Shown one piece after another: positions 1,143-27,108 of a DNA stretch of 37,252 bases. Positions within the stretch are counted from its first letter, which is position 1. Each line of letters starts with the position of its first letter. The stretch lies in IMG/VR virus record IMGVR_UViG_2563366981_000002, positions 1-37,252 of that record, one strand, 5' to 3'. The position numbers and the translations under genes were made by a program. The DNA is from a virus. Lineage: Duplodnaviria > Heunggongvirae > Uroviricota > Caudoviricetes. The notes under the pieces were generated by a model, which made no database searches, was not told where the DNA came from, and saw only the letters and a list, made by a program, of their open reading frames with translations.

Positions 1143-1748
1143 TTATCTTTCTACTTCCCAGCGTAGAGATTGCATTAACATAGCATAAATATTGAACAGG
1201 AAAGTTTTTAAAGTTAATACAAGGAACACTGCACTGCTTCCTACGAGTATATATAGTATTTGAACTCCAACAACTTTAGTGCAATGAGAAAACATTAAGG
1301 CTCTGAGTAATTTTGTAGCCAATCCATTTTCTTGCCCGAAAAGAAGGACTAAAAGATAGATAACAGACCAAAATATGAAATATATAAATACTCTCATAAA
1401 TACACCATAAACATATTTTAAGTAACTTATCCCGTATAATGGATGCTTATACTCCATTAATGAAAGGAAAAGTTCAGGTTTATTTATGGTTGCAAATATT
1501 GTAAATCCAGTAATTAAAAAACCTAATGTTGTTGTAGTGAATCCGAATACTAAAGGTGTCCATTGTCTAATAGATGAAATTAACTCTGGTGATGAAGATA
1601 GACAAAAAGCATTAATAGATAATAATATCACTAACAATAATGTGAAATAAAAGTCAAATGAATTGACCTTTATTTTTTTAGTTAATTTGTAAACATCATG
1701 CAAAGATCGCTCTTTGGTCAGATCTTCTGGGTTGAATGTATATTTCAT
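1143..1748 (-). CDS. accessory small membrane protein (about four predicted TM helices); function unknown
   Basis: 201-aa ORF with four hydrophobic segments; AT-rich; start 1 nt after the stop of the upstream ORF (translational coupling). Confidence 0.7.
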   Translation of the reverse strand: MKYTFNPEDLTKERSLHDVYKLTKKIKVNSFDFYFTLLLVILLSINAFCLSSSPELISSIRQWTPLVFGFTTTTLGFLITGFTIFATINKPELFLSLMEYKHPLYGISYLKYVYGVFMRVFIYFIFWSVIYLLVLLFGQENGLATKLLRALMFSHCTKVVGVQILYILVGSSAVFLVLTLKTFLFNIYAMLMQSLRWEVER

Positions 1749-1749
1749 A

Positions 1750-2799
1750 CTATAGCCACCTAGAAATTATTGATGTTAACTTGGAAAAAATTTTAGTATA
1801 ATCTTCACGTTCTGGAATAATAATATTTCCTTCATCCTTTAATTCTGTGAATGCAGAATACGCCTCTTGAGCAGCTCTTTCCAAATCAGAACTAAGTTGT
1901 GGCCTTGATGCTTTTAGAGTAAAACTATCATTATTCCCTGATAGCCTTGCTCCGTGTTCATCTTTACCACTGATAATTACTTTAGAGTTGGCCATTCGGG
2001 TTGCACTTGTTGTTTTTTGAATGACGGCCTCAGAATTTAAACCATCTTCATTTTTATTTGTGTATACTAATTGAGCTTTACTACTATTAAGTTCTTCTTT
2101 TTCTTGTTCAATTTTCCTCCAGAAGCCATCAAGAGATATATTTTCACTATTTGTTGGCAATAACTCAATTGATAATCTATTAACAACAGAAAAGAGTTCA
2201 ACAAAATTGCTCAATGATCTTGGGTCTGTTAAGGGGGTAACCCGTAATTTGGGGGCTCCTAGTTTACGATAAATATCTTTTTTATACAGTCGATCAATGT
2301 ATGATTTTTTCTTTCTAATTCTTTTATTTTTTTTTACTTCGTAATCCACAAAAGAATTATATCGCTGTGCAAGGCAATACTTGCTAGTATTTTCAAATTC
2401 TTCTAGGGTAGGGGCTCCAGAAACCTCTTTGCAAAGCATTAATCTGTGCTCATTAAGCATAAGAATAAAAATAGAGCTGGGGTGACTTTCTAGCGTCCTG
2501 TGATCTCGAATTAATTGACCATCTTGAAATATTTGATCTCGTTTAAATATGGTCTTTTTTATAATGCGGCCACACAATGCAATTGTTGGAACTATAGGAC
2601 CAATAAAATCTGAATCTGTAGTATCTAACGTAATAATTTTTGTGTCAGTAAAGAAATATTCTGTATCTTTAAATTTTCTAACGTATTTTTGTGCGAAAAA
2701 TGAAGGAAAAACAATGCAATCAAAAGCATCTAAGAGAACTTTGTCCTCTCCAAAATTTAAGGTATAGTTTGCAAATTCAATAGTTTTCGTAAAGCTCAT
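1750..2799 (-). CDS. accessory soluble protein, 349 aa, no motif recognised
   Basis: Long ORF, AT-rich, Lys/Asn/Ile-rich; start 2 nt after the repressor stop; between repressor and int where P2 has no gene. Confidence 0.7.
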   Translation of the reverse strand: MSFTKTIEFANYTLNFGEDKVLLDAFDCIVFPSFFAQKYVRKFKDTEYFFTDTKIITLDTTDSDFIGPIVPTIALCGRIIKKTIFKRDQIFQDGQLIRDHRTLESHPSSIFILMLNEHRLMLCKEVSGAPTLEEFENTSKYCLAQRYNSFVDYEVKKNKRIRKKKSYIDRLYKKDIYRKLGAPKLRVTPLTDPRSLSNFVELFSVVNRLSIELLPTNSENISLDGFWRKIEQEKEELNSSKAQLVYTNKNEDGLNSEAVIQKTTSATRMANSKVIISGKDEHGARLSGNNDSFTLKASRPQLSSDLERAAQEAYSAFTELKDEGNIIIPEREDYTKIFSKLTSIISRWL

Positions 2800-2801
2800 T
2801 G

Positions 2802-3743
2802 TTAAACCCTTTTTCTAATTATTCCTTTAACTTTATTATTAAATTCCAAATCTTCTTTATCGCATTCAAAGCTATATTTTGTGTTTTCAACGCGGATGCG
2901 ATTGTTTGGAAGTTTAAATATGTCTCTAAAAGTAAATTCTCCGTTAATAGATACTAACCATAGACCATCGCTAAGATACTCCTCTTTGCTAATGATATAT
3001 GAATCATTTGCGGAATTAACTATATAGGGATGTTTTAGATTTTGAGGTAAAATTTCGCTCGAAACGATTAATTCTCTTTGATCAGTAAGTTTGCCGTCAC
3101 GTAGATCATAGCAGTCTAATGTAAGCAACCCACTTAGCTTTGTTTGATTGGAATGCCCCTTACCAAAAGATAACCACTCGAGAGACACTCCTGTTTCTAA
3201 ACAGCATTGGATGATCCAGTCTGCCGGAAAAATGTCTCGCATGTATCGTGTAGCTAATGTGCTTTTTGAGATACCAAGGTGATCGGCTAAGGCTTGGCGC
3301 GTTTTGTAACCGTAAGCCTTAACAATTCGCTCTATTGCTGCTTTACCCCCTCGAGTGAAATCCATGTGGTTTTCATTATCGAACTTTATCGTGGGGGTGT
3401 GAACTTCATTGCAAAATTCATCTGCAGACTGTTTTTCAGCATGCCGTTCTGGCGAAGGAACTGGCACTCCTTCTTCAGCATCTAAACCAAATGCTAACCA
3501 TTCGATTGATGCGCCAGTTTCCATTGAACATATAACAACCCAATCAGCAGGGAAGGTATCGCGTGCATATCTGTTAGCCATTGTACTTTGTGAAATACCA
3601 AGGTGGTTACAGAATGCTTGGCGTGATTTGAAACCATAGGCCATGAGTATTCTCTCAATGACTTTTTGCCCTCCTCGATTCTGCATGACCATGGCTTTCA
3701 GATGATCTTCAATATGGCGAAATGTGATTTTATTAGTTGACAT
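2802..3743 (-). CDS. CI-type immunity repressor with tandem duplicated HTH domain and S24/LexA-like C-terminal domain
   Basis: Two internal repeats (…ERILMAYGFKSRQAFCNHLGISQSTMANRYARDTFPADWVVICSMETGASIEWLAFG / …ERIVKAYGYKTRQALADHLGISKSTLATRYMRDIFPADWIIQCCLETGVSLEWLSFG) resembling the 186 CI N-terminal fold; C-terminus has GEFTF motif like lambda CI; divergent from Apl/Cox-like gene. Confidence 0.75.
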   Translation of the reverse strand: MSTNKITFRHIEDHLKAMVMQNRGGQKVIERILMAYGFKSRQAFCNHLGISQSTMANRYARDTFPADWVVICSMETGASIEWLAFGLDAEEGVPVPSPERHAEKQSADEFCNEVHTPTIKFDNENHMDFTRGGKAAIERIVKAYGYKTRQALADHLGISKSTLATRYMRDIFPADWIIQCCLETGVSLEWLSFGKGHSNQTKLSGLLTLDCYDLRDGKLTDQRELIVSSEILPQNLKHPYIVNSANDSYIISKEEYLSDGLWLVSINGEFTFRDIFKLPNNRIRVENTKYSFECDKEDLEFNNKVKGIIRKRV

Positions 3744-6184: not shown

Positions 6185-7038
6185 GCACCATCCTGAAATG
6201 GGCGGGTAATAAAACCGCCGTTATGTCCGAACTGAAAAAATACCTTCCTGCTGGCCCGCGACTGGTTGAACCTTTCGCGGGTTCCTGTGCAGTGATGATG
6301 GAGACGGATTACCCCAGCTATCTGGTAGCGGATATTAATCCTGATTTAATCAACCTCTATAAAAAGGTTGCTGCTGATTGTGAGGTGTTTATATCTCGCG
6401 CCAGAATTTTGTTTGAGGAAGCAAACAGTGAGCTGGCTTATTACAACATAAGGCAGGAGTTTAATTACTCAACTGAAATTACTGATTTCATGAAATCGGT
6501 ATATTTCCTGTATCTCAATCGTCATGGTTACCGTGGGTTATGTCGCTATAACAAGAGCGGGCATTTCAACATTCCCTACGGTAATTATAAAAAACCGTAT
6601 TTCCCTGAAAAAGAAATTCGCGCATTTGCAGAGAAAGCCCAGCGGGCAACGTTTATCTGCGCCAGCTTTGATGAAACGCTGGCGATGTTGAAGGCGGGGG
6701 ATGTGGTGTATTGCGATCCGCCGTATGACGGTACGTTTTCCGGCTATCACACTGATGGCTTCACTGAGGATGACCAGTATCACCTGGCATCCGTTCTTGA
6801 ACATCGATCATCTGAAGGTCATCCGGTCATTGTTTCTAACAGTGACACATCCCTGATTCGTTCGCTGTATCGCAATTTCACTCACCACTACATCAAGGCA
6901 AAACGCAGCATCGGCGTGTCGGCTGGCGAGAGTAAATCTGCAACAGAAATCATTGCTGTTTCCGGGGCGCGCTGCTGGGTGGGATTTGATCCTTCGCGTG
7001 GCGTGGATAGTTCTGCTGTGTACGAGGTGCGTGTATGA
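6181..7038 (+). CDS. dam: DNA adenine methyltransferase (Dam-like)
   Basis: [16 protein letters not shown] and DPPY motifs; ATGA overlap with the upstream gene. Confidence 0.85.
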
Positions 7039-9449
7039 GTCATGACGATATGAGCAACTCTAGCGGCTTTAACGAGGCCGCAGCAGCATTTTCATGGAAC
7101 GGCCCGAAAAAGGCCATTAACCCTTATCTGGACCCGGCGGAAGTTGCGCCGGAGTCTGCACTTTCAAACATGATCACTCTGTACGCTGCCGATAACGAGC
7201 AGGAACAGCTGCGCCGCGATGCACTGAGTGAGCAGGTCTGGGAGCGTTATTTCTTTAATGAATCCCGTGATCCTGTCCAGCGCGAAATGGAGCAGGATAA
7301 GCTCATTAGCCGCGCAAAGCTTGCGCATGAGCAGCAGCGTTTTAACCCGGACATGGTCATTCTGGCAGATGTCAGCGCCCAGCCTACCCACATCAGCAAG
7401 CCGCTGATGCAACGTATCGAATACTTCAGTAGCCTGGGCAGGCCAAAGGCTTATTCCCGCTATTTGCGTGAGACGATTAAGCCATGTCTGGAGCGACTGG
7501 ATTGTGTACGCGACAGTCAGCTATCCGCTTCTTTCCGTTTTATGGCAAGCCATCAAGGGCTTGAGGGCCTGCTGATCCTGCCTGAAATGAGTCAGGATCA
7601 GGTAAAACGCCTGTCCACCCTGGTAGCAGCGCATATGAGCATGTGTCTTGAGGTCGCTTGTGGTGATTTGTATGCCACCGATGACGTTAAGCCAGAAGAA
7701 ATCCGCAAGGCATGGGAAAAGGTGGCAGCGGAAACCCTGCGTCTGGATGTTATCCCGCCTGCGTTTGAGAAACTTCGTCGGAAAAGAAACCGCCGCAAAC
7801 CAGTGCCCTATGAACTCATACCGGGTTCGATGGCACGTATGCTTTGCGCCGACTGGTGGTATCGAAAATTGTGGAAGATGCGTTGCGAATGGCGGGAAGA
7901 GCAGTTGCGTGCTGTCTGTCTGGTCAGCAAAAAAGCATCTCCCTATGTCAGCTATGAAGCAGTGACGCATAAACGTGAGCAGCGCCGCAAGTCGCTGGAG
8001 TTTTTCCGTTCTCATGAATTGGTGAACGAAGACGGAGACACGCTGGATATGGAAGATGTGGTAAACGCCAGCAGCAGCAACCCGGCACATCGCCGAAATG
8101 AGATGATGGCTTGCGTTAAAGGTCTGGAGCTTATCGCGGAAATGCGTGGTGACTGCGCCGTTTTCTACACTATCACCTGTCCGTCACGTTTCCATTCCAC
8201 GCTAAATAACGGCAGGCCCAACCCGACCTGGACAAATACGACGGTAAGACAAAGCAGTGATTATCTGGTCGGCATGTTTGCTGCATTTCGTAAGGCGATG
8301 CACAAAGCCGGATTGCGCTGGTATGGCGTGCGGGTGGCTGAGCCGCATCATGACGGTACAGTTCACTGGCACCTGTTGTGTTTTATGCGCAAAAAAGATC
8401 GCCGCACCATTACTGCTTTGTTGCGTAAGTTTGCCATTCGTGAAGACCGCGAGGAGCTGGGTAATAACACTGGGCCGCGCTTTAAGTCTGAGCTGATTAA
8501 TCCGCGCAAAGGAACGCCGACAAGCTACATCGCGAAATATATCAGTAAGAACATTGACGGGCGTGGTCTGGCTGGCGAGATCAGCAAGGAAACGGGTAAA
8601 TCTCTGCGTGATAACGCTGAATACGTGAATGCCTGGGCGTCTCTGCATCGTGTTCAGCAATTCCGCTTCTTTGGCATTCCGGGGCGTCAGGCTTACCGTG
8701 AACTGCGATTGCTGGCTGGTCAGGCGGCAAGGCAACAGGGGGACAAAAAAGCAGGTGCGCCGGTACTGGATAACCCGCGCCTTGATGCAATCCTGGCTGC
8801 TGCTGATGCTGGTTGTTTTGCCACCTACATCATGAAGCAGGGCGGCGTACTGGTTCCCCGCAAATATCACCTCATCAGAACTGCTTATGAAATCAACGAA
8901 GAACCGACCGCATATGGCGATCACGGTATTCGTATTTATGGCATCTGGTCACCCATTGCAGAGGGCAAGATCTGCACTCATGCGGTGAAGTGGAAAATGG
9001 TTCGTAAGGCCGTTGACGTTCAGGAGGCGGCAGCCGACCAGGGCGCTTGCGCCCCTTGGACTCGTGGCAATAACTGTCCCCTTGCTGAAAATTTGAACCA
9101 ACAAGGGAAAGACAAATCAGCTGATGGGGATACCAGAACGGATATCACCCGCATGGATGACAAGGAGTTGCACGATTACCTGCACAGTATGAGCAAAAAA
9201 GAGCGCCGGGAACTGGCAGCAAGATTACGCCTGGTTAAACCGAAACGGCGTAAAGACTACAAACAGCGAATTACAGAGTATCAGCGTCAGCAGCTCGTCT
9301 ATGAGCTGAAGTCCAGAGGATTTGATGGCAGCGAGAAAGAGGTCGATTTGCTCCTTCGCGGTGGCAGTATTCCGTCAGGAGCAGGCCTGCGTATCTTCTA
9401 TCGGAACCAGCGTTTGCAGGAAGATGATAAGTGGCGGAACCTGTATTAA
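7035..9449 (+). CDS. A: replication initiation protein A (rolling-circle nickase)
   Basis: 804-aa ORF with HUH-like motif ([10 protein letters not shown]); conserved position after early genes. Confidence 0.85.
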
Positions 9450-10157: not shown

Positions 10158-10877
10158 ATGACAACTATTAACAAGCATGGGTTATCTAGAACAATTCCTG
10201 AACCTGTAAAACTGGAGGTAAGGCAGCGCTGTGGCTTTGGTTGCGTTGTTTGTGCTTCTCCCATTGTTGAGTATGAGCATGTAATTCCCACATACGCTGA
10301 TGCAAAGGAGCACTCTCCAAATGCAATAGCACTACTTTGTCCTACGTGCCATGCGAAAGTAACGAAACGTCTTTACTCTAAAGAGAAAATAATTAAAGCA
10401 ATGGAATCTCCTGCAGCCTTACAAAAAGGGAATGTGGCCGATATATTGGACTTTTCTGATAGGCATCCAACAATAATATTTGGTGGTGCGACGTTTGAAT
10501 CCTGTACTGTACCAATAATGTTTCAAAATGAGCCATTGTTAACCATTGAAAAAGAAAATAATGCTTTTCTTATTTCGGGTAAATTTTACGATAGTCAAGG
10601 TATTGTTAATCTTGAATTAATTAAGAATGAGTGGGTTTGTAGTGCAAGGCATTGGGATGTTCAGGTTGTTGGTCCTAGAATAACTATTATAGAAAAAAGG
10701 AAAGGTCCTCGTTTAATTATTAAAGTTGATGCGCCTGAAAGATTGATTGTGGAAAGATTAGATATGTTGGTTAAGGGGACTCGGATTGTAGGAGACGAAC
10801 ACAAGCTAAGAGTCGGTCCACATCAATTTCACAACTGTGGAGTTTCAAATTGCAATATTGGTTTCTGCTTTGGCTAA
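10158..10877 (+). CDS. HNH-endonuclease-domain protein with unknown C-terminal domain
   Basis: N-terminal CGFGCVVC...EYEHVIP...N...CPTCH (CxxC, EH, N, CxxCH HNH signature); markedly AT-rich; adjacent to cos-like motif. Confidence 0.75.
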   Translation: MTTINKHGLSRTIPEPVKLEVRQRCGFGCVVCASPIVEYEHVIPTYADAKEHSPNAIALLCPTCHAKVTKRLYSKEKIIKAMESPAALQKGNVADILDFSDRHPTIIFGGATFESCTVPIMFQNEPLLTIEKENNAFLISGKFYDSQGIVNLELIKNEWVCSARHWDVQVVGPRITIIEKRKGPRLIIKVDAPERLIVERLDMLVKGTRIVGDEHKLRVGPHQFHNCGVSNCNIGFCFG

Positions 10878-10990
10878 CTGGAGGTTGGAAAAAGACCATT
10901 TCCTGTAAGCTGAGTATTTCGTACATTTTTGCCAACGCATGTCTATGTCGCATGAAATCGCATGATCGTTTGAGGATCGTTTTTGCTGAT

Positions 10991-11018
10991 GCCCGCCAGA
11001 GCTGGCGGGCTTTTGCTT
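10991..11018 (+). terminator. rho-independent terminator after the HNH gene
   Basis: GCCCGCCAG / CTGGCGGGC stem followed by TTTTGCTT. Confidence 0.5.
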
Positions 11019-11059
11019 ATGTCATGCAGGTGCATGAAAACCACTACACAAAGCGGGCA

Positions 11060-11078
11060 GGCGTGGCGGGGATACGAG
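11060..11078. other. cos-like motif (putative cohesive-end site)
   Basis: GGCGTGGCGGGGATACGAG followed by GCGCGC; resembles the recalled P2/186 cohesive-end sequence; correct position and orientation relative to the portal gene. Confidence 0.4.
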
Positions 11079-11166
11079 CGCGCGCAATAGGGTTATGTAC
11101 AATAAATTTTTGACGATCTTCGAGTGTTATTAGCTTGAGGCTGTCAGGGAAAATGAATACAATAAG

Positions 11167-11198
11167 AAGCGCCTAGCAGAATGTTACTAGGCGCTTCG
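11167..11198. terminator. perfect hairpin between converging transcription units
   Basis: GAAGCGCCTAG, 10-nt loop, CTAGGCGCTTC; T-rich flank on the minus strand. Confidence 0.35.
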
Positions 11199-11230
11199 AA
11201 TATATAACCTGTATGACTTTCTTAACCTAC

Positions 11231-11338
11231 TTATCTTTTTGATTTCTTCTTCGTATCATCGTGATCGAATACTTGGCGGGTAGGCGGCTTGCTGGGTGGT
11301 GGCGGCGGCGGTAAATTAGATTTCTCATTTTTGCTCAT
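11231..11338 (-). CDS. polyproline micro-protein C (35 aa)
   Basis: MSKNEKSNLPPPPPPSKPPTRQVFDHDDTKKKSKR; AGGAAAA RBS; ATG overlaps the stop of micro-ORF B. Confidence 0.4.
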   Translation of the reverse strand: MSKNEKSNLPPPPPPSKPPTRQVFDHDDTKKKSKR

Positions 11339-11462
11339 CTTTATTTTTCCTATTTTTTGGATCATTGCCATAGCTTTCTCTAACTAACCGAGTGATTGGC
11401 GGTTTAGGTGGTGGTGGTGGTGGTGGTGCTTCATTTTTTTTAGGATTTTTGTGTTCGGTCAT
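11325..11462 (-). CDS. polyproline micro-protein B (45 aa)
   Basis: MTEHKNPKKNEAPPPPPPPKPPITRLVRESYGNDPKNRKNKDEQK; AAGGA RBS 8 nt upstream; paralogous to A and C. Confidence 0.45.
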   Translation of the reverse strand: MTEHKNPKKNEAPPPPPPPKPPITRLVRESYGNDPKNRKNKDEQK

Positions 11463-11577
11463 TTTTATCGTCCTTTCTGTCTCTTCGTAGTTGCCTTGCT
11501 TTTGAATCATCTTCAATAACGATCCTTCTTGCGGGTGGAGTAGGCTGAGGAGGTGGTGGCGGTAACGGTTTGGTCAT
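11440..11577 (-). CDS. polyproline micro-protein A (45 aa)
   Basis: MTKPLPPPPPQPTPPARRIVIEDDSKARQLRRDRKDDKNDRTQKS; AGGAG RBS 7 nt upstream; TAATG overlap with the membrane protein gene. Confidence 0.45.
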   Translation of the reverse strand: MTKPLPPPPPQPTPPARRIVIEDDSKARQLRRDRKDDKNDRTQKS

Positions 11578-12227
11578 TAAGTTCTCCTGACATTTTCAAT
11601 AGGTATTATCAAATAGTTAGGGGCGTTATTTTTCCGCGGTGATGCTGCATCTAAATCAGCTAAAAGAAATATGACTACTGCTGCGATAATTGGAATCCAT
11701 GACCAGACAAGATACTTTGTTGACTCAAATAGTTTACTGGAACGTTCTTCATTGATATTACTGTTCCAGCTAGCACACTCTCTGATTTCTTGATGAATAA
11801 ACTCCCAAAGTTTATTATCAGGGTTATAACTTTCATCGTATGTAAGTCCATTGTCATCGCAATATTTTTTATATTTCACTTCGTAACTAATCAGATCTAT
11901 GTGATAATCATGCAATGCTTTAGGTGCAGGGCAATACTTAAATTCATTTCCCCATATGACTTGTTTCAACAGAATTGATGATACAAGAACTAAGCCAAAT
12001 GAAATTGCGGTACATAAAAATACTAGGCAAGCTAGCCTTGGGTGGGATTCATAAGATGTGTTTTTGGCGAGATAAGTGAGTATAGTTGCGGTAATGACAA
12101 CTAATCCGAATTCGGCTTGAGCGCGAGTATGTATCTTGTCTTTATTCTCAATTTCTGAGAAATAAAGTTTTTCGTAAAATTCTAATGCTTTATCCTTTTT
12201 CATTTTTAGATTCAGTGTGATGTCCAT
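11577..12227 (-). CDS. accessory membrane protein (three predicted TM helices)
   Basis: 216-aa ORF, AT-rich, hydrophobic segments at about residues 40-55, 65-87 and 175-195; lies between the cos-like motif and the portal gene. Confidence 0.7.
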   Translation of the reverse strand: MDITLNLKMKKDKALEFYEKLYFSEIENKDKIHTRAQAEFGLVVITATILTYLAKNTSYESHPRLACLVFLCTAISFGLVLVSSILLKQVIWGNEFKYCPAPKALHDYHIDLISYEVKYKKYCDDNGLTYDESYNPDNKLWEFIHQEIRECASWNSNINEERSSKLFESTKYLVWSWIPIIAAVVIFLLADLDAASPRKNNAPNYLIIPIENVRRT

Positions 12228-12248
12228 GTATCAAACATATCACGATAA

Positions 12249-12278
12249 CAAAAAAAGAAAAGCCGCAATTCTGCGGCT
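12249..12278 (-). terminator. rho-independent terminator downstream of the portal gene
   Basis: AGCCGCA / TGCGGCT stem, then TTTTCTTTTTTTG on the minus strand. Confidence 0.5.
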
Positions 12279-12296
12279 GTTGGGAAGCTAATCTAG

Positions 12297-13325
12297 CTAT
12301 AATTCGTAATTTGTGAACCCTATCGCGTTTTTATCCAGCCATTTATTAAGCTCCTCAAAGCGTCTCTGAAGCGGAATAAGTTCATTACGAACGAATACGC
12401 GGCTGGCCTTCTCCACATCCCCAAATCCCCCAACATTATTAGGCATAATCCCCATCATTTGCGGTGGCACACGATGCGCCGCCATCATGTCATCCCGGCT
12501 CACGTTCTTGATGTTTAGAAACTCATCCTTCGCCGCGACTTCTGACAGAGGAATGATCTGAAGCCCATCCTTTTTGCCGTTAGGCGAGTACATAAACAGG
12601 TTGCGGAAGTTACCCGGTCCTTTGGCGCTTTTCATCGCATTGCGGAGGTTGTTCACATCCTCCTGGTTCTGCGCGGCATCGGTCATGTACATGATGAAGC
12701 CTGCATGACTACCGTTAATGTAATACTTCCGGCGGAACAGCGTGGCGGACTCGTTGAGCAAAGCGGATGGGATGGCAGAAAGATAGCCGGGCAGGCCGTA
12801 GATCTCCTGATTAATATCCGGTTCCATCAGATGAAAAATGCTGCCTTTCGTGAACTGATACGGCTGGGTTGTCATACCGTATTGCACAAACCAGTAGGTA
12901 TCCAGGTCTAACCCGCGTCGGGTATATTTTGCCAGAGCAGGCTCAAGGGCGATAACTTCACCGAAGCGGTTCGTGCGTTTCTCCAGATAAGCGTTACCAA
13001 ATACCAGATAGTCCTGCACAAAACGTGAAAAAGCCTGCTGGCTGAGCAGCGGGTGAGGGATGTAGGTACTGGTCAGTATGTTGCATTTCACCGCAATTGG
13101 TGAACTGTGATGCACGGCAGCGCGGAAGGTGCGCGCCAGTCCGTCAAAGCTTACTGGCGGCTCATACCAGTGATCTGTCTGTACGCATTCCACATAGTCC
13201 AGCAGTTCTCGGCGGTCCAGAACAGGAACGGGATCGCCGAAGCTGAATGCTTCGGCTGTAGTTTGACTTTTAAGCTGGATCTGTTTCGTCGCCGAAGCGC
13301 GGTTCTTCTTACTCTTTCCCATCAA
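12297..13325 (-). CDS. Q: portal protein
   Basis: 342-aa ORF, leftward, cos-proximal, ATGA-coupled to terminase; P2 Q-like position. Confidence 0.9.
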   Translation of the reverse strand: MMGKSKKNRASATKQIQLKSQTTAEAFSFGDPVPVLDRRELLDYVECVQTDHWYEPPVSFDGLARTFRAAVHHSSPIAVKCNILTSTYIPHPLLSQQAFSRFVQDYLVFGNAYLEKRTNRFGEVIALEPALAKYTRRGLDLDTYWFVQYGMTTQPYQFTKGSIFHLMEPDINQEIYGLPGYLSAIPSALLNESATLFRRKYYINGSHAGFIMYMTDAAQNQEDVNNLRNAMKSAKGPGNFRNLFMYSPNGKKDGLQIIPLSEVAAKDEFLNIKNVSRDDMMAAHRVPPQMMGIMPNNVGGFGDVEKASRVFVRNELIPLQRRFEELNKWLDKNAIGFTNYEL

Positions 13326-15088
13326 AAAATCTCCACAATATTGCTGGTATTGGCGGACTCGCCCTGCAGCGGTTCGTTAAACAGTGCGTGCATTGTTGCC
13401 CAGGCCAGATCGGCGTGACTGGCTTCTTCGCTGCGGCTGGCTTCATAGGTCGGGCGGTTGCCGCTGGCGGTGGTGGCGCGACGGATTGCCATAAATGACT
13501 GCGCTATGTCGGTGTGTCCGGCGTCAAACTCCAGACGGCGGTGGCTGATAATGTCGTAGGCCTTGAGTACCAGGGCGTTTTTAACATTGGGGTTGTAGAC
13601 AAACTCCCGGACGGCAGGAAAGAACGCTTTCACGTTCTCGTAAACCCCGTGGCCGACCCCAGTTGAGTCGATGCCGATGTAGGTCACGTTGTACTGTTCG
13701 GTCAGTTTTTTGATGGCGTCAGCCTGGGCGCGGAAGTCCATCCCGCGCCACTGGTGACGCTCAAGAATGCGGAACTTACCGCCCGGTACGGCTGGCGGTG
13801 CCACCACCACGCATCCGGCACTGTCGCCGTTCTGCGTACCTTTTGCCGGGTCATAACCGATCCATACTTCGCGCCAGCCAAACGGGCGCAGGGCCAGTGC
13901 ATGAAAGTCGGTCCAGACTTCCCAGCTGTCCACCATGCACGCCTGCAATTCGCTGAGCGGGAACACAGATGCGAGATCGTCAACGAATTCGCACATCAGC
14001 AGGTTCTGGTATTCGTCCGGGCTGTACTCCATGCGCAACTGGTCGAGGTCGAACAGGTTACAGCCGCCGCGTACCGCATCTTCCACGGTGACTATCTGGC
14101 GGTATTGCCCGTCTGCGCACAGCAGGCCGGGGGCCAGATTGCTGTGGGACAGGTCGATGTCCACCTTATCGGCTTTGTTGCGCCCACGGTTGAACAGCGC
14201 ACCGGACCAGAACGGATAAGCACTGTGTGTCAGGCTGGATGGCGTGGAAAAATAGGTCTGTCGCCATTTCTTGTGAATAGCCATCCCGGAAGCCACTTTG
14301 CGCAGCTCCTGGAATTTCGGTATCCAGAAATATTCATCCAGATACAGGTTGCCGTGGTAACTCTGGGCCGTGCGGGCATTGGTGCCGAGGAAATACAGTG
14401 TGGCCCCGTTGGGAAGCACCATCGGATCGCCTTTCAGCTCCACCTCCACTTCTTTGGCGAAGTCGATGATGTACTGCTTAAAGACGTGAGCCTGTGCCTT
14501 ACTGGCAGAAAGGAAAATCTGGTTACGTCCGGTAAGCAGGGCGTCAATCAGGGCTTCACGGGCAAAGTAAAAGGTCGCACCGATCTGGCGTGACTTCAGC
14601 AGGTTGCGGATGCGGTTGGTTTTTCCGGCTTCCCACCAGTGGCGCTGATAGTTGAACATGGAGGAATGGAAGATTTCTTCCAGCTTCTCAATCTGTTCAT
14701 CGGTGAAAACGTTCTTTTCCGGCTGACGACGCGGGCCTTTGTTGCGGTTGGCGACGTTAGGGTTTAAGTCGGCTTCGTTGCCGCCATTGTTAAACTTGCC
14801 GATCCGCGCATGGCGCTCCGACTGGCGCGCCAGCAGGTCAATCTCTTTGAAATCTTTCCCTTCTTTGTGCTCCTTCATAATGAGCTGGCAGTAGCGTGCG
14901 GCGGTGGTGAGCTGCATCTGATCCAGCGGCCCATAGTCACCCCACTTGTCGCGTTTTTTCCAGCTGTGAACGGTTGCAACTTTCTCGCCCAGCATTTCAG
15001 CAATGCGGGCTACGCGGTATCCCTGAAAGTACAGCAGCATGGCCTGCCGACGGGGATCGAGATCTGCGGGTGTCAGTGTGGTGTTCAT
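13322..15088 (-). CDS. P: terminase large subunit (ATPase)
   Basis: 588-aa ORF divergent from the capsid operon; P2 P-like position and size. Confidence 0.9.
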   Translation of the reverse strand: MNTTLTPADLDPRRQAMLLYFQGYRVARIAEMLGEKVATVHSWKKRDKWGDYGPLDQMQLTTAARYCQLIMKEHKEGKDFKEIDLLARQSERHARIGKFNNGGNEADLNPNVANRNKGPRRQPEKNVFTDEQIEKLEEIFHSSMFNYQRHWWEAGKTNRIRNLLKSRQIGATFYFAREALIDALLTGRNQIFLSASKAQAHVFKQYIIDFAKEVEVELKGDPMVLPNGATLYFLGTNARTAQSYHGNLYLDEYFWIPKFQELRKVASGMAIHKKWRQTYFSTPSSLTHSAYPFWSGALFNRGRNKADKVDIDLSHSNLAPGLLCADGQYRQIVTVEDAVRGGCNLFDLDQLRMEYSPDEYQNLLMCEFVDDLASVFPLSELQACMVDSWEVWTDFHALALRPFGWREVWIGYDPAKGTQNGDSAGCVVVAPPAVPGGKFRILERHQWRGMDFRAQADAIKKLTEQYNVTYIGIDSTGVGHGVYENVKAFFPAVREFVYNPNVKNALVLKAYDIISHRRLEFDAGHTDIAQSFMAIRRATTASGNRPTYEASRSEEASHADLAWATMHALFNEPLQGESANTSNIVEIF

Positions 15089-17142: not shown

Positions 17143-17793
17143 ATGAGCCTGAGTCCCGCACGGCAGCATCGCCTGCGCGTTCAGGCTGAACAGGCCGCCC
17201 GCGAGGGCGGCAGTGTTCGCCACGCATCGGGCTATGACCTGATGCTGCTGCAACTGGCGGAAGACCGCCGCCGTCTCAAGGGCGTTCAGTCCACGGTCAA
17301 AAAAGCGGAAATCAAGGTGGAGCTGCTGCCGAAGTACGCCGCCTGGGTAGAGGGTGTCCTGGCTGCCGGAGGCGCTCAACAGGATGACGTGCTGATGTAC
17401 GTGATGCTGTGGCGCATTGATGCCGGAGATTATGCCGGGGCGCTGGAGATCGGGCGTCATGCCCTGCGTCATGGCTGGGTGATGCCGCTGGGTAACCGCA
17501 ACGTGCAGACCGTGCTGGCAGAGGAAATGGCAGACGCCGCGCAGAGCGCAATGCTTGCCGCCACCGGCTTTGATGCCGATCTGTTGCTGCAGACGCTGGA
17601 GCTGACAGACGGTCTGGATATGCCGGACCAGTCACGGGCGCGTCTGCATAAAGCGATTGGCGCTGTCCTGAGTGAAAGCAATCCGGCTTTCGCCCTTAAT
17701 CATCTCAACCATGCGTTACAGCTCGATCCCCGCTGTGGCGTGAAAAAAGACAAACAGCAGCTGGAGCGCAGACTGCGCAATGACAGCCGCTGA
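17143..17793 (+). CDS. M: terminase small subunit / endonuclease
   Basis: 216 aa following the capsid gene; P2 gpM position. Confidence 0.8.
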   Translation: MSLSPARQHRLRVQAEQAAREGGSVRHASGYDLMLLQLAEDRRRLKGVQSTVKKAEIKVELLPKYAAWVEGVLAAGGAQQDDVLMYVMLWRIDAGDYAGALEIGRHALRHGWVMPLGNRNVQTVLAEEMADAAQSAMLAATGFDADLLLQTLELTDGLDMPDQSRARLHKAIGAVLSESNPAFALNHLNHALQLDPRCGVKKDKQQLERRLRNDSR

Positions 17794-25084: not shown

Positions 25085-25701
25085 TGCGCGAGGATACCAT
25101 GAATACAGTCACACTGAATGAGGCCCTACTGGCGACTGTCGCGGGTGAAGTCGTCATATACAACTACGACAGCAAGACGCGGGAATATCTTTCCACATCA
25201 ACTGAATATCTTGCGGTTGGCGTCGGCATCCCGGCATGTTCTTGTTTAGATGCACCAGTTACACATAAAGCTGGTTATGCAATCTGCCGTTCTGCAGATT
25301 TTAACTCATGGGAATATGTGCCAGACCATCGCGGTGAAATCATCTATAGCACCGAAACAGGAGAATCGAAAGAAATCACAGCTCTGGGTGATTACCCTGA
25401 AAATACAACCACTATCGCCCCGTTAACGCCATATGATAAATGGGATGGTGAGAAATGGGTGACGAATACTGAGGCACAGCATAGCGCCGCAGTAGAAGCG
25501 GCAGAAGCACAGCGCCAGTCACTGATTGATGCAGCAATGGCTTCCATCAGTCTGATTCAACTGAAATTACAGGCCGGACGGAAGCTGACGCAGGCAGAAA
25601 CAACCCGTCTAAACGCTGTGCTGGATTACATTGATGCGGTGACGGCAACAGATACCAGAACCGCGCCGGATGTCATCTGGCCTGAACTGCCGGAGGCGTA
25701 G
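25084..25701 (+). CDS. G: tail fibre assembly protein (current orientation)
   Basis: 205-aa ORF, TAATG-coupled to H. Confidence 0.75.
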   Translation: MREDTMNTVTLNEALLATVAGEVVIYNYDSKTREYLSTSTEYLAVGVGIPACSCLDAPVTHKAGYAICRSADFNSWEYVPDHRGEIIYSTETGESKEITALGDYPENTTTIAPLTPYDKWDGEKWVTNTEAQHSAAVEAAEAQRQSLIDAAMASISLIQLKLQAGRKLTQAETTRLNAVLDYIDAVTATDTRTAPDVIWPELPEA

Positions 25702-26122
25702 GCCATTCAATATCTGGCGCACCGGAAGTATCGACCAGTTCTAGTGCGTCCAGATAATCCAGCCACAAATTATATTGCGCCAGTTCCTCACCTTTCAGGC
25801 GACCAATCGCCGCTTTACCAGGCCATTGCTTACTGTTTATGTATTCGTTGACCTGATTAATCAATTGCTGCTTTTCCAATTCGGCTGCGGCAATTTGTTC
25901 CTCATGAGTTGGCGGTGGAATATCAATCCATGCAGGCATTCCGTCGATGACACCTCTGTATTTTCCTTCTGGTGCTTCCTTCATAAATTCGGCAGCAACA
26001 GTGTCGTCAATTTTGATTCCATCATCGGGCCATTCGCCGGATTCCTGATAAGCGATTTTAAGCTCCACAGGGAAAAACGCATTTTTATCGGCACTGAAAA
26101 TATATTTCTGCATTTCTACCAT
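25673..26122 (-). CDS. alternative tail fibre assembly protein (inverted cassette)
   Basis: 149-aa minus-strand ORF with the same W-rich C-terminal motif as the plus-strand assembly protein. Confidence 0.7.
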   Translation of the reverse strand: MVEMQKYIFSADKNAFFPVELKIAYQESGEWPDDGIKIDDTVAAEFMKEAPEGKYRGVIDGMPAWIDIPPPTHEEQIAAAELEKQQLINQVNEYINSKQWPGKAAIGRLKGEELAQYNLWLDYLDALELVDTSGAPDIEWPTPPAVQAR

Positions 26123-26486
26123 CCTATCGAAATATAACTGAATCTGTATTGCTGTGAGATATCACTGGTTGCCACACGCCACGCTGAATTACTGATATGT
26201 TCAAAATTTACAGACAAAACCTGCGGGGCAGGAATCGACGGGTCTGACTGAACGGCATCAGACATAACACTGACTGAAACCATCGGCTGATTAGGGAATG
26301 GTATAGGGAAGTGTCCACTGATAAAGCGGGTCGTGTTTCCTGCAAAAGTGCCAAACTGAACAATATATCCACCTGGTAGCCTGAACCATCCCGAACCAGA
26401 AGCGAATGCTCCCATATCCGGTATCTGATTATCTCCTGTGCCCACATCCCTTTTCGCCGCTTCTCCCAAACCAACGTTTAAGAAAA
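26116..26486 (-). CDS. alternative tail fibre C-terminal cassette (no start of its own; expressed only after inversion)
   Basis: Minus-strand frame encodes ...FLNVGLGEAAKRD... across the right recombination site, matching the ...YLGLGEGSA... junction in H. Confidence 0.6.
26461..26486. repeat. right recombination site of the invertible segment
   Basis: TTCTCCCAAACCAACGTTTAAGAAAA, a 26-bp imperfect dyad resembling gix/hix-type sites, just upstream of the invertase gene. Confidence 0.6.
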
Positions 26487-26541
26487 TGAAGAGATAACGG
26501 CTAACTGGCATCATTTCCGGTTTCTATTCAGGGGGATGATC

Positions 26542-27108
26542 ATGCTTATTGGATATGTACGCGTGTCAACAAATGACCAGAACACCGATTTGCAACGCAA
26601 TGCGCTGAACTGCGCGGGATGTGAGCGGATTTTTGAGGATAAAATCAGTGGCACTAAGTCCGACAGACCGGGGCTGAAAAAACTGCTCAGGACACTATCG
26701 GCAGGAGACACGCTGGTTGTCTGGAAGCTGGACAGGTTGGGGCACAGTATGCGGCATCTTGTTACGCTGATAGAAGAGTTGCGCCAGCGTGGTGTGAATT
26801 TCCGAAGCCTGACTGACAGTATTGATACCAGTACCCCAATGGGCCGTTTCTTTTTTCATGTCATGGGTGCCCTGGCTGAAATGGAACGCGAACTGATAGT
26901 TGAACGTACCAAGGCAGGGCTGGCTGCAGCTCGTGCTAAAGGCAGAGTAGGTGGACGCCGTCCTAAGTTGACCACTGAACAGTGGGCACAGATTGGACGT
27001 TTACTCGAGGCCGGAGAATCAAGACAGCGTATTGCACTGATTTTTGATGTAGGCGTTTCTACCATTTATAGAAAATTTCCGGCAAATAAGAGCAATGAAT
27101 CCCCCTGA
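26542..27108 (+). CDS. serine DNA invertase (Hin/Gin/Cin family)
   Basis: N-terminus MLIGYVRVSTNDQNTDLQ with the catalytic Ser motif; C-terminal HTH; adjacent to the invertible segment. Confidence 0.9.
   Translation: MLIGYVRVSTNDQNTDLQRNALNCAGCERIFEDKISGTKSDRPGLKKLLRTLSAGDTLVVWKLDRLGHSMRHLVTLIEELRQRGVNFRSLTDSIDTSTPMGRFFFHVMGALAEMERELIVERTKAGLAAARAKGRVGGRRPKLTTEQWAQIGRLLEAGESRQRIALIFDVGVSTIYRKFPANKSNESP

Follow-up and report, generated by a model that had tools for sequence, protein, structure and literature searches.

The locus raises the question of what has come to lie between the packaging site and the portal gene of a P2-like prophage, whether that site is what it seems, and whether its neighbour is out of place there. 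The window (the whole stretch of DNA that was analyzed, 37,252 nucleotides) looks, judging from its sequence, like a prophage of the 186/Fels-2-like type (Peduoviridae) that is apparently complete. The genes that we examined (int, CI, gpA, the terminase subunits and the portal gene) appear intact, the host genes ybjL and ybjM are found at 34.6-37 kb of the window, and a near-identical prophage resides in E. coli 23AR0998, where it is integrated beside rcdA. The order gpA, DinI/Tum-like gene, orf97-like HNH gene, cos, cargo and portal gene (minus strand) matches that of 186, and beyond the portal gene follow the large terminase, scaffold, capsid, small terminase and tail genes. The cognate P2-type terminase (gpP and gpM) and the portal are all encoded by the same element as cos. 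The landmarks are as follows:

1-1053: integrase.
7035-9449: gpA, left of cos.
12297-13325, minus strand: portal gene, homologue of P2 Q and 186 W (Pfam Phage_portal).
13322-15088, minus strand: large terminase subunit, P2 gpP homologue (Pfam Terminase_5, Terminase_6N and Terminase_6C), the enzyme expected to cut at cos.
17143-17793, plus strand: small terminase subunit, P2 gpM homologue (Pfam Phage_term_smal, E = 3e-41).

Some other parts of the element can be mentioned in passing. Within 1143-3743 (minus strand), two genes without a Pfam match, of 201 and 349 aa, separate the integrase from the repressor. With 313 aa and two CI helix-turn-helix domains the CI-type repressor is unusually long; the related E. 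coli prophage has a CI of 189 aa in its place. Finally, a Hin/Gin-type serine invertase gene (26536-27108) adjoins an opposed tail-fibre C-terminus and tail-fibre assembly gene (25673-26514), and 25673-27108 as a whole looks like an invertible host-range segment.

The first-pass annotation had described around 1.2 kb of extra coding sequence between the putative cos site and the portal gene, bracketed by a perfect hairpin and the portal terminator. This description holds. The end of the cos 19-mer and the portal stop are 1218 nt apart, with coding sequence at 11231-12227 (minus strand); the hairpin is real, at one base from where it had been placed (11166-11197, not 11167-11198), and a terminator-like hairpin (12278-12261) follows the portal stop. 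The interval is occupied by a self-contained, AT-rich operon of 1.17 kb on the minus strand, which has a GC content of 33-41% as compared to ~50% in the phage flanks. In the direction of reading it consists of:

12261-12278, minus strand: portal terminator (tQ/tW analogue), a hairpin plus T-run found in the terminator scan.
12234-12242, minus strand: extended -10 promoter element TGATATGTT (TGnTATGTT in all five cassettes).
11577-12203, minus strand: 208-aa all-helical protein with three predicted transmembrane (TM) helices (phrog_36961).
11440-11577, minus strand: small ORF a, 45 aa (MTKPLPPPPPQPTPPARRIVIEDDSKARQLRRDRKDDKNDRTQKS), beginning with MTKPLPPPPPQPTPPARRIVIEDDSK.
11325-11462, minus strand: small ORF b, 45 aa (MTEHKNPKKNEAPPPPPPPKPPITRLVRESYGNDPKNRKNKDEQK), beginning with MTEHKNPKKNEAPPPPPPPKPPITRLVRESY, kept in the cassettes.
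11231-11338, minus strand: small ORF c, 35 aa (MSKNEKSNLPPPPPPSKPPTRQVFDHDDTKKKSKR), conserved in five cassettes.
11166-11197, minus strand: cargo terminator hairpin, with arms 11166-11176 and 11187-11197 of 11 bp that are 100% complementary.

The TGnTATGTT element is present upstream of five cassettes, two of which have no intact portal gene before them, and TGATATGTT is the likely promoter of the cargo operon. A sigma-70 consensus site inside the 3' end of the portal gene was considered for this role and rejected, as it lies upstream of the terminator. The hairpin and T-run of the portal terminator are also found upstream of the cassette in two other loci (L089 and L091), which implies that this element travels with the cassette, and in the same two loci hairpins with T-runs occur at the same place past ORF c. 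The start of the TM protein corresponds to M9 of a 216-aa ORF (position 12203; alignment A1), and its AF2 model has a pLDDT of 82.5. Charge counts (positive-inside) point only tentatively to a periplasmic C-terminus, a location that is hard to reconcile with free peptides without a signal peptide. Searches with Pfam gave nothing above threshold for the cargo proteins, PADLOC-DB v2.0.0 (E <= 0.01) gave no match for the TM protein or the three small proteins, and PHROGs returned one family of unknown function only (phrog_36961). Within 50,697 phage records no match to the TM protein was recovered by tblastn and no cassette DNA by blastn, and an Rfam scan over 10800-12400 found nothing.

To which family the operon belongs can be seen from the relatives of the TM protein. 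Its close homologues, at least 53% identical, make up 17 clusters from Enterobacterales genomes and metagenomes. Five further cassette loci were found. Four of these share the three small ORFs with the window, in unchanged order and frames, and the fifth (L100) has two; the four-gene layout persists in homologues with as little as 53-56% identity. The cassette of each of the six loci, the window included, is located between cos and either a portal gene or what remains of one. Searching 1.84 billion representatives with a profile recovered 957 members of the TM family at E <= 1e-3, which are representatives at 50% identity; many of them are 250-310 aa long. A tail of at least 45 aa was present in 53 members, and 36 of these 53 end in a Pro-rich motif, consisting of a Pro-rich stretch, P-x-x-R, three hydrophobic residues and E-D (e.g. 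PPPPPAPEPPEIRPLVEDD and KPTPPAHRVIMEDF). One member carries two Pro modules in tandem, and in the fused relatives an internal Met is often found just before the module. The motif PPxRRIVIEDD of ORF a matches this C-terminal module. Judging from the sequence match, the small ORFs are detached and multiplied copies of the Pro-rich module that elsewhere forms the C-terminal end of the TM protein itself.

Relatives in which the Pro module was noted include P0059, P0063, P0076, P0115 and P0207. Pfam and PADLOC searches on ten distant relatives gave nothing above threshold, and in the AF2 model of a fused relative the tail has low confidence. One fused relative, in a comM-inserted element, adjoins DprA-PRTase, a pair that was validated as a defence system by Rousset; one is found in a P2-like prophage near a homologue of tail gene D, one in a Mu-like phage, and another adjoins a SEFIR/TIR protein. 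Members of the TM family are found repeatedly in P2-like and Mu-like phages as well as in further mobile elements, beside defence genes.

The other cassette loci differ in their state of preservation. L100 (6001-10087, from a metagenomic P2-like phage) has an a-like and a c-like small ORF, and carries a BsuBI/PstI-type restriction-modification pair across cos, so that cargo is present on both flanks of cos. L091 (Enterobacter) and L088 (Pantoea) are degraded mosaics with a portal remnant (L091 3057-5283; L088 3234-3794). In L091 one continuous blastn match corresponds to 13147-10937 of the window and covers the portal remnant, the cassette, cos and the block to its left. Beyond cos, a P4-type Psu fragment is present in L091, and across L091 and L088 the neighbour there is a P4-type Psu fragment or an Ogr/Delta gene. 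The possibility that these two loci are intact P4-like satellites was rejected, both being degraded mosaic islands in which a portal remnant persists; they look like mosaics that arose from recombination at cos. A 2026 survey describes P2-P4 exchanges as rare. In the window the last ~12 codons of the portal gene (12297-12340) are AT-rich and unlike those of the relatives whose 3' ends were compared, which suggests that the junction at which cargo was swapped lies inside the 3' end of the portal gene.

The TM protein turned out to be present, with an identical sequence, in an existing catalogue, as 'system 96' of Table S5B of Rousset. The row opens with MKKDKALEFYEKLYFSEIENKDK and describes a single gene labelled '2 TM', with 33 occurrences/loci and no Pfam domain; the small ORFs are not listed with it. 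A version of ORF b, WP_061090207, appears separately in Table S5A as 'hypothetical'. The TM protein is absent from the Rousset table of tested systems, and no plating test was found in the literature searched. The catalogue thus has one '2 TM' gene, without the three polyproline ORFs or the fused relatives. New here are the conservation of the small ORFs, the purifying selection on them and their homology to the fused Pro-rich module. Comparable arrangements are Rst_2TM_1TM_TIR of phage AC1 and gop-beta-cII of P4, which likewise combine small membrane proteins with partners in a cos-adjacent hotspot of a P2/P4-type element. The window cargo differs from both in that it has no sequence similarity to them (no PADLOC match), lacks a TIR or sensor domain and has polyproline partners of 35-45 aa.

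The role of the operon was approached by comparison. By analogy with the other occupants of the slot (see below), and hence from context, we tentatively propose, at somewhat less than even chances, that it is an anti-phage or superinfection-exclusion module, expressed from the prophage and with a membrane protein as its effector. More specifically, the cargo could be a phage-borne membrane system that has gone unrecognised, in which a 3-TM protein works with a Pro-rich module that is either fused to it once or twice or encoded by two to three overlapping mini-genes; this we think possible, on the unlikely side. The searched literature contained nothing relevant on polyproline small proteins in phage defence. 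The main alternative, similarly possible and as a reading rather doubtful, is that the cargo has nothing to do with defence. It would then represent an addiction module or toxin-antitoxin system, an accessory for lysis or membrane remodelling, or some other form of lysogenic conversion, with peptides that maybe act as EF-P-dependent translational regulators. Runs of 5-12 prolines depend on EF-P to be translated efficiently. The lack of a match to any PADLOC model would fit a role other than defence, and a small membrane protein accompanied by small charged peptides that look labile is what one typically sees in toxin-antitoxin pairs; in addition, partition systems and toxins are listed by Rousset for the same hotspot. 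On the other hand, relatives of the TM protein adjoin validated or candidate defence genes, and in many of them the Pro module is covalently attached, which argues for a role at the protein level over a purely regulatory one, although neither observation is decisive.

Any such role presupposes that the three small ORFs are genes. At 35-45 aa they are short and of low complexity, they are in three different frames, as would result from frameshift decay of a tandem tail, PGAP calls only one of the three (a longer version of ORF b, WP_061090207), and the exact sequences of two of the three are absent from the protein collection. They might thus be chance ORFs in a 3' UTR rich in CCN repeats, or the decayed remains of a fused tail. 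Nevertheless, each of them starts with an ATG of its own, preceded at 8-10 nt by a purine-rich tract; the start of ORF a overlaps the stop of the TM gene (TAATG), and the small ORFs overlap each other by 23 and 14 nt. Their order, frames and motifs have been kept even though synonymous sites are near saturation, with pairwise dN/dS values that are mostly between 0.1 and 0.5. ORF c is the most constrained of the three, with an invariant FDHDD motif and computable dN/dS values of 0.07-0.22. The small ORFs are conserved and mostly under purifying selection. Among E. coli copies that are 99% identical the sole indel is one codon in the poly-Pro tract of ORF b (11407-11409), and it is in frame. The annotated versions of ORF b span 58 to 64 aa, which together with the indel suggests in-frame slippage in the CCN repeats. 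The internal Met before the module, which is also seen in fused relatives, likewise speaks against decay. Considering all this, we find it improbable that the three ORFs are not genes. The strongest evidence that they are genuine and work together with the TM protein is the presence of the fused module in relatives.

The packaging site to which this operon is attached was analyzed on basis of the ends of the P2 and 186 records, in which cos is annotated at bases 1-19, and of 80 loci from different species that were gathered via the portal protein, 55 of which could be laid over the cos region of the window without gaps. The following elements were distinguished:

11060-11078, plus strand: cosN, predicted 19-nt 5' cohesive end GGCGTGGCGGGGATACGAG, aligned base for base with the annotated cos of P2, 186 and P4.
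11079-11085, plus strand: CGCGCGC, the last conserved bases right of cosN.
10937-11085, plus strand: conserved cos region, candidate terminase recognition block plus cleavage site (conservation over 55 loci).
10951-10965 and 11022-11037 (within 10950-11040), plus strand: paired CATGA/TCATGC repeats (repeat families D1, I1 and I4).
10991-11014, plus strand: Rho-independent terminator of the rightward tum/orf97-like operon (terminator scan; 9-bp perfect stem I3).

The first-pass annotation had noted a resemblance to the cohesive end of P2 and 186, and the alignment with both cos regions bears this out: the motif is conserved with both. P2 cosL reads GGCGAGGCGGGGAAAGCAC and 186 cos GGCGTGGCGGGGAAAGCAT, each followed by TGCGCGC. 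The 19-mer of the window is identical to that of 186 at 15 of 19 positions, the first 12-13 nt being the same and the differences falling at positions 14, 16, 17 and 19 (ATACGAG versus AAAGCAT), and to that of P2 at 14 of 19. Common to the window and the cos of 186, P2 and P4 is a 19-nt unit that opens with GGCG(T/A)GGCGGGG and is followed by (C/T)GCGCGC, and the left core before the 19-mer is alike in all four (TGCA..TGCAT.AAAACC....AAGCGGGC(A/G)). According to the alignment and the conservation profile, the conserved flanks of the window correspond to the 55-bp core of P2, 186 and P4 cos (Ziermann and Calendar 1990, as cited in PMC5694545). The site is also in the expected place and orientation: as in P2 and 186, the portal gene (12297-13325, minus strand) runs against the sense of the top strand of the 19-mer. 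Of the related loci, 34 have exactly the same 19-mer, and most others deviate at position 13 only. In the isolated, plaque-forming Salmonella phage SEN8 the cos is annotated as ggcgtggcggggatacgag (PMC5427200), which does not differ from the 19-mer of the window.

The conserved block measures ~150 bp and lies almost entirely left of the cut; on the right it extends 7 bp past the 19-mer, and from 11086 onward conservation is at background level. When 10880-12300 was compared to the 50,697 phage records by blastn, 10937-11093 was the sole matching stretch. The block is 85-96% identical in 84 P2-like phages of Yersinia, Klebsiella, Salmonella and Escherichia, including Fels-2, SopEPhi, RE-2010 and the P2-like phages of Yersinia and Klebsiella at 90-96%. 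Matches with E. coli genomes (megablast) stop at 11084-11094, and the variable slot begins at 11086-11094. Two pairs of CATGA/TCATGC repeats, 72 bp apart, are found left of the cut in columns that are 0.9-1.0 conserved over the 55 loci, and counterparts (TGCAACTGCAT) are present in 186 and P4; these repeats are candidate binding sites of the small terminase subunit. The terminator at 10991-11014 occupies the position of t95b in the annotation of 186.

Taken together, the alignment to P2, 186 and P4, the conservation of the block and the annotation of SEN8 allow us to assign 11060-11078 with high confidence as a cosN of the P2/186 type, at which cleavage is predicted, and it is very probable that cos and packaging are as described. 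It could be argued that the motif is a relic or a look-alike, and that the prophage packages from another site or is defective, considering the four differences from the 186 19-mer and the fact that the ends are predicted ones; phage records that begin at the 19-mer, which would be a sign of mapped ends, were sought in the phage collection and none was found. This is nevertheless very improbable: GGCGTGGCGGGGATACGAG is the sole match in the window at up to three mismatches (with 0 matches in 100 shuffles), conservation across many genera covers both the 19-mer and ~130 bp on its left side, the terminase and portal genes and the others that were examined are intact, and the same sequence is annotated as cos in a phage that forms plaques.

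The remaining claim, that this would be an unusual insertion site, had been based on the point that P2 has little or no cargo here. This point is right: in P2 and 186 the interval counts about 170-180 nt, is non-coding and has the terminator (tQ/tW) just past the portal stop. The comparison across relatives contradicts the claim itself. We measured the distance from portal stop to cos in 56 loci from different species in which cos could be assigned with confidence downstream of the portal gene. Nine of these showed the P2/186 state (148-249 nt), 7 had 0.6-1 kb and 40 more than 1 kb; around the median of 1667 nt and up to the maximum of 3499 nt, 47 of 56 thus fall within 0.6-3.5 kb. With 1218 nt the slot of the window is typical, and P2 and 186 represent the minority state. 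A recent or otherwise unusual insertion into a normally empty site, for which the short non-coding interval of P2 and 186, the low GC content of the cargo and the rarity of the exact cargo (6 of 5426 complete E. coli genomes) might be adduced, can be dismissed as extremely improbable in view of this distance survey, the hotspot descriptions of 1996 and 2022 and the other cargo in the slot of sibling E. coli prophages.

The contents of the slot in other prophages lead to the same picture. The cos block is present in 1255 of the 5426 E. coli genomes, and no more than 6 of these 1255 have the cargo of the window as well. In sibling prophages with the same left flank the slot is filled by a TIR-domain protein in strain D7 and by a protein of 554 aa in strain CI5; the group of SEN8, Fels-2 and RE-2010 also carries other cargo right of cos than the window. 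Seven cargo proteins of other relatives were scanned with PADLOC, and six of them gave matches: a Type II methyltransferase, bSEFIR, PDC-S49, a weak pAgo-associated match, an Old/GajA-like protein and AbiLi. According to Dodd and Egan 1996, as cited in PMC5694545, retrons replace the DNA from cos to the terminator in a 186-like prophage, and Nakayama 1999 is cited there as naming the slot a hotspot as well. Rousset et al. 2022 (PMC9122126) reported 1,650 arrangements in 18,150 loci for the cos-proximal gpA-gpQ region and classed this region as a defence hotspot, in which partition systems and toxins also occur, and the hotspot is restated by Moura de Sousa et al. 2026 (PMC13586616). Given the distance survey, the known defence genes in the slots of relatives and this literature, it is essentially certain that the slot of the window is part of the known gpA-gpQ defence hotspot of P2-like phages. 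Cassettes in this hotspot are in general AT-rich, self-contained and different between syntenic prophages, and that of the window is no exception. It does differ in direction, being co-directional with the portal gene; in 44 of 45 relatives with cargo (loci L008-L070) the largest ORF of the cargo is convergent with that gene.

The explanation that best accounts for the locus, in which we have good confidence as a whole, combines a cosN, a swappable slot and an operon of a membrane protein and Pro-rich peptides. Upon induction, the gpM and gpP homologues would recognise the block 10937-11085 and introduce nicks staggered by 19 nt, such that the virion chromosome would open with 5'-GGCGTGGCGGGGATACGAG and its left end would comprise cargo and portal gene. 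The DNA from ~11086 to the portal terminator, the classical cos-to-Q variable slot, could then be replaced freely, which fits the fact that only 7 bp are conserved right of the cut and the rest is on the left. The Pro-rich peptides would bind or regulate the TM protein and in this way govern the activity of the membrane system; that the membrane protein is their target is the most likely option given the fusion of the module to the same protein in relatives.

For the prophage, the cos assignment matters for annotation only: it fixes the predicted virion ends, and it probably indicates that the element is packaging-competent. As to its location, the cargo confirms a textbook hotspot without adding anything new; with a slot known for so long the finding is an ordinary one. 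The sole part that merits follow-up is the polyproline cassette, which is a concrete and cheap candidate for testing in phage defence or exclusion. As to the family, system 96 is a four-gene operon of which three polyproline mini-genes were missed, and it belongs to a large family without an assigned function. Should the anti-phage or exclusion role be true, the separately encoded polyproline peptides would amount to a regulator or sensor of a new type, which might for instance link the system to EF-P-dependent translation or compete for a binding site on the membrane protein.
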